DNA of 64,000 nucleotides, taken from IMG/VR virus record IMGVR_UViG_3300019763_000001, positions 91,494-155,493 of that record. One strand, given 5' to 3'. Position numbers and translations under genes: made by a program. Below, one piece after another: positions 1,078 through 63,709 of this stretch. Positions within the stretch are counted from its first letter, which is position 1; each line of letters opens with the position of its first letter. The DNA is from a virus. The notes beneath the pieces are model-generated. The model was not told the origin of the DNA. It searched no databases and saw only the letters and a list, made by a program, of their open reading frames with translations.

Positions 1078-2187
1078 TTAAGTAGTGATTGCTGATATTT
1101 GCTTAACCAATATTGTTGCACTAGCAGCGCTTCCCAACTCACAAGATAAATTGCCATCAACATCCACTGTGAAAGATAAACCATTGATTCCAACAGCATC
1201 AGGACCATATGCAGTAACAGAGCTACTAACCCCGTTAGATGCAATAGTTACGTGACTAACTCTATGATTTGATCCTTCAGATATCGACACAACTAATACC
1301 GCAGCTCGAAGATTTGCTGGTGCTGTCCATATTAAATGAGGACCTACTCCTGTAGTTACAATAGGTGTTGGTGCTGATTTAGCTAAGATAAACCCATCAT
1401 CATCAGCATATAATTCAACATCACCGTTTCCTGATAAATTTGTTGATTTAATTTTTCCATTAATATCAACACCAGTAGATGAAGTTATTAATTTAGAAAT
1501 GCCAGCATAATTTAATGATACGATTGGAGTACCACCACCTACATATATCTGTTCATAAAGATTACCACCAGTCCTAGCTAACAACGTCAACAAATTATCA
1601 TTTGCAGTTTGAGTTATGTTAAGTCTACCTGTTCCATTTGAAATATTACTATCTGTTCCATTATGGGATATACTCATGTCATTAGAGTCACCGAAAAACG
1701 CTGATATATTATCTGGATATAAAATAGATCCAGCCAATAAACCACCAGTCAATTGCAAGTATCTATTATCGTTATAATCTCTATTCCCAACCTCTGAACC
1801 ATTTGTAGGATCAGAAATGTTATCAATATTAAAACCATCTAAGTTTAAATTGGATGAAGCACCACCTTTTAACACATATCTGTTATCATTGTATCCCCTA
1901 TCACCAACCCCTGCATCATCAACAGGATCTAATGGATTTTTTAATGATTTGTTATCCATATCAATACCACCTTGCATAACAGCACCTGTCAATGGAAGAT
2001 AGTTCGTTTTGATCGACTCCAAATCATCATATAGGATTTTTACAGTTTTAGCAGAAGCAGGATTTGTCGTAGAATTTGTTACAAAGTTATCAACAACTTC
2101 GTTTCTACTGATTTTAGTTTGTATCGATTCTAATAGTTGATCAATTCTAACACCGTCGAATCGTGAGTAATATTCTGAATTTGCCAT
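1078..2187 (-). CDS. baseplate/tail-fibre-associated structural protein
   Basis: 369 aa; YLPLTG and NRxYNDxRY fibre-type repeats; directly downstream of baseplate wedge genes. Confidence 0.65.
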   Translation of the reverse strand: MANSEYYSRFDGVRIDQLLESIQTKISRNEVVDNFVTNSTTNPASAKTVKILYDDLESIKTNYLPLTGAVMQGGIDMDNKSLKNPLDPVDDAGVGDRGYNDNRYVLKGGASSNLNLDGFNIDNISDPTNGSEVGNRDYNDNRYLQLTGGLLAGSILYPDNISAFFGDSNDMSISHNGTDSNISNGTGRLNITQTANDNLLTLLARTGGNLYEQIYVGGGTPIVSLNYAGISKLITSSTGVDINGKIKSTNLSGNGDVELYADDDGFILAKSAPTPIVTTGVGPHLIWTAPANLRAAVLVVSISEGSNHRVSHVTIASNGVSSSVTAYGPDAVGINGLSFTVDVDGNLSCELGSAASATILVKQISAITT

Positions 2188-3087
2188 TTACCCTTCTCTC
2201 TTCTCGAAAATTATATTGAAGCCACTAGGAGCTACAAAAACATTAAAAATGTTGTTTATAAAGTCAGCATAATGATCAACATCTTCATTTAATTTTATGA
2301 CTATTGAGTACTCGCTGTATTTGTCGTCGTCTCTCAATACCTGCAATGTATCAATATGCGGAGCACTTCCATCAATATAAATTAAGCTATCTTTTGGATA
2401 TATAACATCAATAGATTCTCTAAAGAATAGTCTAAAGAATAACTCCATAGACGCTTTAGTTCCTTTCATTTCATTTATTCTTTTCAGTAGCTTAATTAGC
2501 CTTAGATTATCAACTTGAATGTATTCTGTTCCCCCATCACCACCAATAATAAACGCTTTCTTATTTGAAGTGAAAAATCCATCTTTATCGCTAGTGAATA
2601 GTTGTTGCAATGCTCTAACTTGTCTACGCTCTTGCACTTGAAAACCGAACTGCTCCATCCACAGCTGAAAATACTCCTCATCATTTCTAGCAACATCAAA
2701 CCAACGACCATCGTTGATCATCATTGTATAACCATCGCTAGTTACAAAAGGTAAGTATTCTCTTTCTAGATGGGTTCGTTCAACGTGGTTTTCTATAACT
2801 GCTCCAGCGTTGGTATTCCTGTTGAAATCTTGAATTAAGTTAATGAATCCATCATTTTTATCTAATATTAGGTATTTTGGATCTTTTGTTGTTTTATATA
2901 AATCGAAGTCAGTTTTCACCCACTTATCGATATTTTCCTTAATAGATGCAAGCTCTTCAATAGATAAACCATCTTCTCTATACAGCCACTCATAATATTT
3001 TTCAATGAATGTTATGAATAGTTGATAGTCCTCTAAAAAATATAGAGGAACTTGCATTCTAATTCTATCACTCACTCCTGATGACAT
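2188..3087 (-). CDS. baseplate wedge subunit, gp7-like N-terminal domain
   Basis: VPLYFLEDYQLFITFIEKYYEWL and KGTKASMELFFRLFF motifs; follows gp6. Confidence 0.65.
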   Translation of the reverse strand: MSSGVSDRIRMQVPLYFLEDYQLFITFIEKYYEWLYREDGLSIEELASIKENIDKWVKTDFDLYKTTKDPKYLILDKNDGFINLIQDFNRNTNAGAVIENHVERTHLEREYLPFVTSDGYTMMINDGRWFDVARNDEEYFQLWMEQFGFQVQERRQVRALQQLFTSDKDGFFTSNKKAFIIGGDGGTEYIQVDNLRLIKLLKRINEMKGTKASMELFFRLFFRESIDVIYPKDSLIYIDGSAPHIDTLQVLRDDDKYSEYSIVIKLNEDVDHYADFINNIFNVFVAPSGFNIIFEKREG

Positions 3088-3088
3088 A

Positions 3089-4837
3089 TCAACTCTCCTT
3101 AACTATAAAATTTACATTAATGTTATTGAATCTTAAAATAGATTCTCTAACACTATTGATATCAGCATTTGAAGGAGTAGCATTAATGACAATTGTACCT
3201 ATAGATACTGGATTCAAATTTACGATAGATATTAAACCAGTGTTATAATCCACCGAACCGTATACACCATGTTCGGTTATCTGATTACCTAACGCTGATC
3301 TAATTTTAATATCCCCATTTTCGTCATATAGTTCATACACTCTATCATCAACTGATAGACTGAACCCAGTCATTGAAACGCTTCCAGCTTTTATCGCATT
3401 ATTGAACCGAATATTAGAACTATTGATTGTATTTGGCGTTATATCGTTTATTGTTTTAGATATTGATACTGATACAACGTTAGATACAAAAGATGTCTGC
3501 AAATTATTGATATATTCAGCTAGCAGTGAAGCTTCATATGATTGACCAAATTTCTCTAAGTTGTTATCACTATAATTATTCAAATGATCTTGAGTCTGTT
3601 TTCTAAGCTCACTTTCATCCAAAACAGTCAGCGTCTTTAAATACTTTATCGTCACATCTAAGTTTAAATCAATATAGCTAGGATCGACGATAATAGGAGT
3701 TATAGAACCAACATTCCTAGGGGCTAGAATATCATTAACAAGCTCATTCTTAGCTGCTTGTGTTAATGTATCGCCGTTATTAGGTTTTACAGCAATATAC
3801 GTATACCCATGTTTTGGTGGAACCTCTGTCGATCCACTCCATGCAATAACATCATCAGCTTCACTGAATTTAGCTTTAACAATTGCGTCATAATCTTGGT
3901 CACTTACAGCGGATCCAGCTGAAGCAAATAATAAAGGTGCATTTCGTCTAATTGATTCCAAACTTTCTTTATCTGATCCACCGTATGTCTTTTGAACATT
4001 AGATACAGCGATATTACTATAGCCTTCAATCAATGACGCGGGTTTAATTACTTGTATTTCATTAGCCGACCCACCATTAGTTCTAATATAGCGAGCTGTA
4101 ATGATATTGCCATCAACAAGTCTATATGAAACAATACCGTCACCGAATTCTATTTGATATAATCCTCTACGATTTTCTTCAATGTGAAAAATCTTAGATG
4201 ATGGTTCAATGTTGAATAAGTCATCAAATCTAGCAAACGCGCTTTTGCTTTCATTAACACTAGATTCCTGAACTTCAACAGTTAGGGTATCTATATCAAT
4301 ATCATCATGCGGAATAACATAAGTATCTATACCATTGCCCTGTACTAGCCAATTGTACGTCTCATAACTTCCTTGAACTAACTCAATACCAACAAATGTA
4401 TATACCCCATTAGCTAATGGAGCAACATAAGATTGAGCAGGTGAAAATTGATAGATAACGTCATCCTTATTTCCAACAAAAGCGACAGTCTCTTTATTAA
4501 GAGAAATAGATGATGGTGCTTCTGCTAAAATAGATGGGGTTACAACAATATCAACAGTTGTTCTCGCACCTCGTTTTGATTGAGGGACATATCCACCTAA
4601 AAAACTAGAAAGTGAACTAGCAACCTCCCTTGAATTAGTGACGCTCATAAACGTATCACCAACCGCTGCATTAGCCATATATGCATTTAGTTCTGTATTT
4701 TTAGCAAGTAGGTTTAATATCGCACTCATACCACTTGCTTCAAAATCATAATCACTGAATTCATCTTGAGATGACATAAAGAGTTTCAAACGTTCTTTAA
4801 TATCCTCAAAGTTCAGACTTGAATTTACAATAGGCAT
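3089..4837 (-). CDS. gp6: baseplate wedge subunit gp6
   Basis: LNFEDIKERLK..QDEFSDYDFEASG, YQIEFGDG, GGSDKESLESIR..AVSDQDY motifs. Confidence 0.93.
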   Translation of the reverse strand: MPIVNSSLNFEDIKERLKLFMSSQDEFSDYDFEASGMSAILNLLAKNTELNAYMANAAVGDTFMSVTNSREVASSLSSFLGGYVPQSKRGARTTVDIVVTPSILAEAPSSISLNKETVAFVGNKDDVIYQFSPAQSYVAPLANGVYTFVGIELVQGSYETYNWLVQGNGIDTYVIPHDDIDIDTLTVEVQESSVNESKSAFARFDDLFNIEPSSKIFHIEENRRGLYQIEFGDGIVSYRLVDGNIITARYIRTNGGSANEIQVIKPASLIEGYSNIAVSNVQKTYGGSDKESLESIRRNAPLLFASAGSAVSDQDYDAIVKAKFSEADDVIAWSGSTEVPPKHGYTYIAVKPNNGDTLTQAAKNELVNDILAPRNVGSITPIIVDPSYIDLNLDVTIKYLKTLTVLDESELRKQTQDHLNNYSDNNLEKFGQSYEASLLAEYINNLQTSFVSNVVSVSISKTINDITPNTINSSNIRFNNAIKAGSVSMTGFSLSVDDRVYELYDENGDIKIRSALGNQITEHGVYGSVDYNTGLISIVNLNPVSIGTIVINATPSNADINSVRESILRFNNINVNFIVKES

Positions 4838-4902
4838 AAAATACCTCTCTCGCCAATTTAAATAATATCATCAAATAAACTATATTTATTAAAGGTACAA
4901 TT

Positions 4903-62910: not shown

Positions 62911-62939
62911 CTATAGATATTTTAAAGAAATGATTTTAA

Positions 62940-63017
62940 GCGCCTATAGCTCAATTGGATAGAGCAACTGCCTTCTAAGCAGTAGGTTGCCAGGTTCAAG
63001 TCCTGCTAGGCGCGCCA
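62940..63017 (+). tRNA. tRNA-Arg(UCU)
   Basis: GCGCCTA/TAGGCGC acceptor, ACTGC-CTTCTAA-GCAGT, TTCAAGT loop, CCA. Confidence 0.95.
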
Positions 63018-63178
63018 ATTTTAATGAGATATATTGCCCGAATCCCTGTATGGTCAAGACAATATATCAATAGTTCGGTGGCTACCTTCTGGTAACAGAG
63101 TGACTTACGTAGTAGTTAACTACGGCAAACCCGACGATGGGAGTGGAAAGCCCCAATTTTTATTAAAGGAGATTGCAA

Positions 63179-63709
63179 ATGACAAAACTAAATATAAAAA
63201 ATGCAAGACAGCTTGAAACTTCTATTGTAGGTCTTATCCAACAAAAGAAATTGAAACTAGCGATACGCAATAACAGAGTTCTATTCCCAACGGTAATTGA
63301 ATCGACTCAATCCACAAAAGAACGGGTTGAGACTATTTTGGGAAATATCGTTGAATTGGATAACTTTAGACTCCAGATTCGTGTTGCAATCAGTGAATTT
63401 AATGAAAAATCTGGTATAAATAAGTTAACAGCTGAGATAGCTAAAGTCAGCTGCTATATTGAGACTTTGCAGCTTTTGTTGGATATCGGCGAACCTTATC
63501 CACAAACATCTCACTATAACAGTTCAAAGACAGCTTATACTCCTGGATTGTCGGAAGACGATTTAGATTCAGTGGGTGCAGAAATTATGAAATCCAATAG
63601 AAAGATCCAACGGCTGAAAGATAAATGCAACGGTATCAACTACAGCGGCTATATACATCTAGATGATAGTGTAATAGCTCGTTGCCAGAATCTCGGCCTA
63701 TTGGATTGA
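63179..63709 (+). CDS. hypothetical coiled-coil protein
   Basis: AGGAG RBS; IR.AI...N..SGIN motif. Confidence 0.7.
   Translation: MTKLNIKNARQLETSIVGLIQQKKLKLAIRNNRVLFPTVIESTQSTKERVETILGNIVELDNFRLQIRVAISEFNEKSGINKLTAEIAKVSCYIETLQLLLDIGEPYPQTSHYNSSKTAYTPGLSEDDLDSVGAEIMKSNRKIQRLKDKCNGINYSGYIHLDDSVIARCQNLGLLD

Follow-up and report, generated by a model that had tools for sequence, protein, structure and literature searches.

The bacterial virus recorded in IMG/VR as IMGVR_UViG_3300019763_000001 very probably uses an in-frame UAG in its messenger RNAs (mRNAs) as a recoding signal instead of a terminator, as judged from its nucleotide sequence. The window that we analysed comprises 64,000 nucleotides (nt), positions 91,494 to 155,493, and forms the final 64 kb of the record, a single contig of 155,493 bp that has direct terminal repeats and is rated 100% complete in IMG/VR; positions below are those of the window unless a genome position is given. 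Across the whole genome we found 16 TAG(+1) junctions in 15 genes, of which 13 are TAGA, two TAGT, one TAGG and none TAGC. A ribosome with an in-frame UAG in its A site would take a four-base step (UAGN), insert one amino acid and continue in the +1 frame. Because UAG acts as a recoding signal, selection would have purged TAG from gene ends, leaving TAA or TGA to terminate essentially all genes. In a full-text search of the literature we found no report of TAG-directed +1 recoding across the genome of any phage.

Junctions were sought by asking of each TAG whether the frame leading up to it and the +1 frame after it were both coding, and for the homology tests the genes were translated with the four-base word read as one residue. 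Seven junctions lie in the window, and at each the protein goes on in the +1 frame after TAG:

24484..24487, minus strand: J1, TAGA, in a gene of 189 amino acids and unknown function (24055-24625)
25933..25936, minus strand: J2, TAGA, residue 15 of a Dda-like helicase (24640-25978)
30958..30961, minus strand: J3, TAGA, about residue 12 of a phrog_4756 protein (29572-30994)
40648..40651, plus strand: J4, TAGA, residue 30 of a UvsX-like recombinase (40561-41699)
41543..41546, plus strand: J5, TAGA, residue 328 of the same UvsX-like recombinase gene as J4
42225..42228, plus strand: J6, TAGG, residue 35 of a gp41/DnaB-like replicative helicase (42123-43578)
53643..53646, plus strand: J7, TAGA, residue 54 of a family-B DNA polymerase (53484-56226)

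The fused DNA polymerase (J7) aligns over residues 5-912 with positions 7-851 of the 856 in phrog_262 (804 bits), whereas the downstream open reading frame (ORF) alone scores 721 bits and misses 118 N-terminal profile positions. Most full-length homologues, among the matches listed, cover 96-99% of the fused protein, and a multiple alignment of DNA polymerases is unbroken at the junction; the entry in a public protein collection is a fragment of 803 amino acids, started at an internal ATG by standard gene callers. Joining the two frames likewise raised the scores of both helicases. At J2 the fused protein matches phrog_325 over residues 2-439 as one stretch (295.5 bits vs 284.3 for the downstream ORF alone) and its N-terminus matches T4 Dda; at J6 it matches phrog_19 over residues 2-468 (305 bits vs 253), the Pfam DnaB N-terminal domain (residues 2-81) spans the site and the alignment with T4 gp41 has no gap there. 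In the recombinase, J4 is crossed by phrog_97 (residues 5-350, one stretch), by Pfam RecA (12-249) and by a local alignment with T4 UvsX, while J5 is spanned by phrog_31060 (244-370) and phrog_18112 (247-374) and the alignment with the T4 UvsX structure 3io5 is continuous through it. At J3 the +1 frame is open for 467 codons and offers no ATG, GTG or TTG until 71 codons beyond the junction, a point already within the region conserved in the profile; an upstream GTG, with an AGAGG site 7 nt before it, lies 11 codons before TAG. The J1 gene opens with an ATG served by a GAGGA ribosome-binding site and runs for 46 codons in the upstream frame; the sequence on either side of the junction is scored as coding, and profile searches with this gene gave no family match. 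The window TAGs at 8238, 23560, 38650, 43595 and 46237 were rejected as junctions, being ribosome-binding sites of the TAGGAG type, intergenic, or in non-coding frames.

Outside the window the same search gave nine further junctions (genome positions):

80599: virion protein of 73 amino acids
54916: gene of unknown function
43515: NrdA
41209: NrdB
39717: RuvC-like resolvase, TAGT
38632: gp45 clamp
22170: gp55-like sigma factor
21400: deoxynucleoside monophosphate (dNMP) kinase
18776: helix-turn-helix (HTH)/phrog_1745 protein, TAGT

Family-profile or solved-structure alignments cross 12 of the 16 sites as one stretch. Outside the window these are the sites in NrdA (where the ATP cone spans the junction), NrdB, gp45, the dNMP kinase, the RuvC-like resolvase and the 73-residue virion protein, together with one TAGT site whose junction-crossing HTH match is weak. 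Several fused proteins score above the downstream ORF alone, and in alignments with the solved structures of E. coli NrdA, T4 UvsX and RB69 gp45 the four-base word takes up a single residue and opens no gap. Eight of the downstream frames contain no ATG, GTG or TTG in their first 12-71 codons, a stretch that encodes conserved protein. The candidates at genome positions 30808 and 65724 were discarded on the same grounds as the rejected TAGs of the window.

The junctions are not spread evenly along their genes: 15 of the 16 fall within the first 55 codons (residues 11-54), the sole distal site being UvsX residue 328, and under uniform placement along these genes such clustering has a chance of about 1e-11 (arithmetic from gene lengths). 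This fits selection to limit the cost of failed events, or else a gate on translation at the 5' end. Fifteen of the 16 sites also lie outside the structural module; counted per gene, the enrichment in non-structural genes is not significant (P = 0.2).

An earlier note, made from the window sequence alone, had claimed that its roughly 80 credible genes all stop with TAA or TGA and that in-frame TAGs occur only at recoded junctions, and the stop tally agrees with both statements. A crude codon-bias gene call of the window gave 86 ORFs, of which 55 end in TAA, 28 in TGA and three in TAG. The three are the upstream pieces of the junction genes J1, J5 and J7 (the pieces at the other four window junctions fall below the length of the ORF call), so that none of the 83 credible window ORFs (positions 1078-63709) ends in TAG away from a junction. 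The remaining TAG-ended ORFs of at least 25 amino acids on the coding strand are nested off-frame, have a negative coding score or end within a ribosome-binding site (e.g. 8238 and 43595). Two tiny ones are ambiguous, namely 46132-46239 (TAGG, 35 amino acids, overlapped by a TAA-ended ORF of 67 amino acids) and 62445-62534 (TAGC, 29 amino acids). As a trinucleotide TAG is common, with 2,017 occurrences in the window on both strands. Genome-wide, TAG terminates at most two of about 186 genes, both outside the window, and the earlier note's expectation of what would speak against it, many genes ending in TAGA or TAGG with no +1 extension, finds one such gene (the ORF at genome 243-512) plus the TAGG at genome 54747. 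The latter ends the J9 gene, and a +1 step there would add just Arg-Ile-Ile before TAA. Relatives behave differently: annotated genes end in TAG in 7 of 86 cases in T4 and in 8 of 56 in the Ackermannviridae Erwinia phage Bue1 (8-14%), and both phages keep the same genes unsplit (in Bue1 those for gp45, gp55 and the helicase). Against the T4 share of 8%, the probability of finding none in 83 is 1e-3 in the window, and that of at most two in 186 is 3e-5 in the genome.

The association with TAG is also specific. A strict junction detector returned nine TAG sites in this phage and a single TAA site, at genome 29576, which was rejected since an ordinary gene start follows nine codons later; there was no true TAA or TGA junction, and the same detector found zero junctions in 50 kb of T4, a genome of equal G+C. 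No in-frame TAG on the coding strand was followed by a 0-frame coding continuation lacking its own start. The earlier note had argued that random indels would seldom expose TAG seven times out of seven, and the numbers bear this out: after a random 1-nt insertion the first stop in the old frame is TGA in 49% of cases, TAA in 38% and TAG in 13%, so that the chance of TAG throughout is about 7e-7 for the seven window sites (arithmetic) and 1e-14 for all 16. The base following TAG is biased too, A occurring at 13 of 16 sites when AGA makes up 40% of AGN codons (P = 9e-4). With 16 junctions, 12 of them crossed by homology and none after TAA or TGA, the note's proposal that UAG has been freed from termination for recoding is supported.

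Apart from TAG itself and the preference for A as the fourth base, the 16 contexts have nothing in common. The codons before TAG (AGC, ACA, UUA, GAA, AAA, AAA, ACA, UUU, GGU, UGG, GAC, AGC, UGC, UUA, AAU and ACG) represent 12 different triplets, and only UUU-U could re-pair in the +1 frame. Aligning the 16 contexts showed no conserved column upstream of TAG, with GGAGG nearby only at J3; no site has a homopolymer, and downstream mRNA structure shows no excess (mean -7.6 vs -7.4 kcal/mol). These shared-context results rule out slippage in the P site of the prfB type and hopping of the gene 60 type. Since the preceding codons are diverse and do not re-pair in the +1 frame, the shift appears to be driven from the A site, either by four-base reading of UAGN or by occupation of the +1 codon AGN while UAG is left unread. 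The step would be ribosomal, because only the ribosome distinguishes the 16 in-frame TAGs from the approximately 2,100 off-frame ones inside called genes. The inserted residue would be Arg at UAGA and UAGG and probably Ser at UAGU, either from the normal meaning of the +1 codon AGN or from pairing of UCU and A37 of a transfer RNA (tRNA), described below, with UAGA. Junction residues face variable positions in homologues (S, G, N, Y, D), and the inserted residue is therefore not readable from conservation.

As to what might decode UAGN, ARAGORN and Rfam found only two tRNAs in the whole genome, Met(CAU) and Arg(UCU), and the second of these is the sole elongator:

62940..63017, plus strand: tRNA-Arg(UCU), found by ARAGORN and Rfam

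This tRNA reads AGA and AGG, the +1 codon at 14 of the 16 sites, and its UCU plus A37 is formally complementary to UAGA. UAGN decoders selected in E. coli free of release factor 1 (RF1) cross-read A, G and U as the fourth base, never UAGC (PMC4764823), and the fourth-base spectrum of the phage parallels that of these laboratory tRNAs. We tentatively regard the phage's own tRNA-Arg(UCU) as the leading candidate decoder; decoding by it would need weak or neutralised RF1 action at UAG. A host or unrecognised four-base decoder, and decoder-free shifting at a slowly terminated UAG, each seem somewhat less likely. The complete scenario, in which UAGN would be a true four-base codon in 15 genes, read by this normal-looking phage tRNA with its loop of 7 nt through UCU and A37 while a phage function neutralises host RF1, is possible, if doubtful. 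A hidden decoder tRNA was looked for in relaxed ARAGORN runs, which gave noise only, and with Rfam, which gave nothing new; neither program found a suppressor tRNA with a CUA anticodon in the phage genome. A tRNA-like stretch at genome 590-665 was rejected as a decoder, since it has a CAU loop and derives, in decayed form, from the 3' part of tRNA-Met. The anticodon stem-loop of tRNA-Arg is identical to that of an ordinary Acinetobacter phage tRNA-Arg, and the only oddity of the molecule is one extra C between variable loop and T stem. This C creates a C-C mismatch in the T stem drawn by ARAGORN and does not occur in three ordinary phage tRNA-Arg genes. A promoter-like TTGACT-N16-AATGAT stands directly upstream of the gene (62907-62934), and the neighbouring genes gave no informative family match.

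Several observations weigh against the recoding interpretation or against its proposed decoder. The anticodon loop of tRNA-Arg(UCU) is a canonical one of 7 nt, CUUCUAA; tRNA-Arg genes with 80-86% identity to it occur in over 1,700 phage records, and this family is common in phages without such recoding; and ARAGORN and Rfam found no tRNA with an enlarged anticodon loop in the phage genome. Selections in E. coli from tRNA libraries with 7-nt loops yielded no UAGN decoders (PMC4764823). The earlier note had proposed a genome search for, among other things, a release factor; that search was run, and RF-1, PCRF and PTH2 domains are absent from the phage genome. DNA and protein searches of GenBank phages, IMG/VR and JGI metagenomes gave no close relative in which conservation of the sites could be tested, and for J1, J3, J9 and J16 the evidence consists of frame structure and coding potential. 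Then there is the ORF at genome 243-512 (89 amino acids), which ends in TAGA followed by non-coding sequence. Its homologues have the same length of 89 amino acids on two otherwise unrelated metagenomic phage contigs and stop at the same codon, one with TAGA and the other with TAA. Because the homologues end at this codon, one of them with TAA, its TAGA is, to judge by that comparison, a true terminator, and owing to this genuine TAGA end UAG may retain some terminator activity. The ORF has 80-84% nucleotide identity with the two contigs, which share nothing else with this phage, have the same G+C and end genes with TAG in the normal way; the ORF gives the impression of a small mobile gene that was recently inserted at a tRNA and has retained its old stop. 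It sits between tRNA-Met and the decayed copy of that tRNA's 3' two-thirds (about 590-665), which has a T loop TTAGAAT and a broken anticodon stem. Upstream in this region (genome 130-670) an 8-nt stretch, GGAGCTAA, is complementary to the altered acceptor 3' strand.

Other explanations of the junctions have to be set against these data. Since the genome was assembled from a metagenome and lacks an isolate, and TAG is the rarest stop in many genomes, it may be asked whether the junctions merely reflect mistakes in sequencing or assembly, or frameshift mutations in a genome that is decaying and non-viable, with TAG depletion a coincidence of composition or host bias. We consider this the least likely account of all, given that errors and random mutations are blind to frame and would expose TAG first in only 13% of cases, hence the 1e-14 above. 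Moreover, every shift is +1 and none is -1, no site is at a homopolymer, the shifted frame begins exactly at TAG with one residue and no gap relative to homologues, 15 of the 16 sites lie in the first 55 codons, and essential genes (DNA polymerase, NrdA/NrdB and clamp) would all be dead. Frame-blindness also makes it extremely unlikely that one base is removed before translation, whether by RNA editing, by transcriptional slippage or, in appearance, by a modified DNA base that sequencers misread. Ackermannviridae do carry hypermodified thymidines, but such a process would equally hit the roughly 2,100 off-frame TAGs and the 1,871 TAGA tetranucleotides on both strands of the whole genome, and the 16 sites offer neither a motif beyond TAG(A) nor a homopolymer run for slippage.

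Two further explanations leave the DNA as it is. TAG could be an ordinary stop, with the split genes making two cooperating polypeptides or the downstream part arising by termination and reinitiation. A GTG, TTG or ATG does lie within about 15 codons at J1, J4, J9 and J10, and standard gene callers do annotate the polymerase from its internal ATG. We nonetheless think this very unlikely, as eight of the +1 frames have no start for 12-71 codons, a stretch that is conserved protein, and the upstream peptides of 11-54 residues would be cut inside domains, for example within the ATP cone, at the N-terminal domain of DnaB or in the clamp's first strand. Such an arrangement must, in addition, recur in 15 genes and at TAG alone, and it leaves the avoidance of TAG at real gene ends unaccounted for. 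Alternatively, the recoding might be borne by the host, in a lineage where UAGN is a four-base codon or effective RF1 is missing, the phage having adapted to it. In favour of this view, the phage has neither a dedicated decoder nor an RF1 antagonist that could be recognised; we rate it as unlikely, since the two phage contigs with the mobile gene (80-84% nucleotide identity), which equal this phage in G+C, terminate at TAG normally. Because these contigs use TAG as a stop, it is suggested that hosts in this setting terminate at UAG. The fourth-base preference for A also matches the phage's own tRNA-Arg(UCU).

Natural decoding is held to be strictly triplet, isolated programmed frameshifts being the exceptions. 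Genome-wide +1 frameshifting directed by stop codons in Euplotes was reportedly described by Lobanov et al. in 2017. In this ciliate the reading of many genes depends on a +1 shift placed exactly at an in-frame stop, UAG-A included, with no elaborate mRNA signal and with insertion of the residue of the +1 codon (PMC5011710); the phage is alike in the first two of these respects and would be in the third. Yet Euplotes is a eukaryote with eRF1 and this is a bacterial virus; its sites are mostly AAA-UAA/UAG-A, whereas here the stop is UAG only and AAA precedes it at 2 of 16 sites; and its stops still terminate near the poly(A) tail. The expanded-loop four-base tRNAs (sufD, sufJ and the evolved UAGN tRNAs of PMC4764823) resemble the phage system in that UAG plus one base makes one step and one residue, with A best as the fourth base, G and U tolerated and C never, and with RF1 as the natural competitor; they differ in having an anticodon loop of 8 nt, when the sole candidate in the phage has one of 7 nt. 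Phages with code 15, both crAss-like and other gut phages, have reassigned TAG to Gln (10.1101/2021.08.26.457843, PMC9523058). They too have withdrawn TAG from termination and use it inside genes, but they read it in frame as a triplet with a CUA suppressor tRNA and concentrate the recoding in late genes, unlike the +1 change without a CUA tRNA, mostly in replication and nucleotide-metabolism genes, seen here. The RF2 gene prfB (CUU-UGA-C) also undergoes a bacterial +1 shift at a slowly decoded in-frame stop, just as TAG is present at 16 of 16 junctions in the phage; prfB, however, requires that CUU-U slip and re-pair in the P site, with a Shine-Dalgarno stimulator placed 3 nt upstream, and neither is seen here. 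In the bypass of T4 gene 60 a non-coding gap is flanked by matched take-off and landing codons, whereas the gap here is one base and its flanking codons are unmatched.

If the four-base reading is true, UAGN would be the first natural virus-wide quadruplet codon and would form a translational gate at the 5' end of replication genes. It would further follow that reassignment can give a stop codon the meaning of a frame change and not just of an amino acid, and that this is possible in a virus whose bacterial hosts presumably use UAG for termination. The genes carrying the step include those for DNA polymerase, clamp, helicases, recombinase, ribonucleotide reductase and the late sigma factor, and standard gene callers silently shorten such genes, as in the polymerase fragment mentioned above. 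The phage thus offers a natural system for asking how RF1 is out-competed, whether an ordinary tRNA can take four-base steps and why the sites cluster in the first 55 codons. UAGA is also the favoured engineered quadruplet codon in synthetic biology, for which the phage would offer a natural template.

The gene content is that of a T4-/Ackermannviridae-like phage with a G+C of 35%. The window holds genes for baseplate wedge, Dda-like and DnaB/gp41-like helicases, UvsX and family-B DNA polymerase; outside it are NrdA/NrdB, gp45 clamp, dNMP kinase, gp55-like late sigma factor, topoisomerase II and SbcCD, as well as major head, portal, sheath, terminase and rIIA. The closest known proteins come from pf16, Kuttervirus and Erwinia phage Bue1 and reach an identity of only about 38%; for the nearest DNA polymerase the figure is 38%. 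A host search for an exact copy of the phage tRNA in bacterial genomes gave no match.

Some other features of the genome deserve mention. Between the leftward and rightward gene blocks of the window lies a divergent intergenic region of 860 nt with two repeat families (31141-31200 and 31342-31421), comprising G+C-rich tandem repeats, AGAGCGTTAGC-like and with a period of about 31, and two direct repeats of 34 nt placed 46 nt apart; these may be regulatory or origin elements. The start codon of an ORF of 289 amino acids at 48198-49067 is uncertain, TTG being the first possible start, with no ATG before codon 210 of the open frame. At genome 63269-65494 (minus strand), just upstream of the major head gene, an ORF of 741 amino acids has HNH/homing-endonuclease profile matches at both ends. 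Finally, at genome 52300-52480 (minus strand) a frame of 110 codons scores as coding in -1 relative to a gene of 307 codons, after that gene's TAA. Its first 34 codons are without ATG, GTG and TTG; a small membrane protein initiated at TTG, a non-canonical start and a -1 event are all conceivable.

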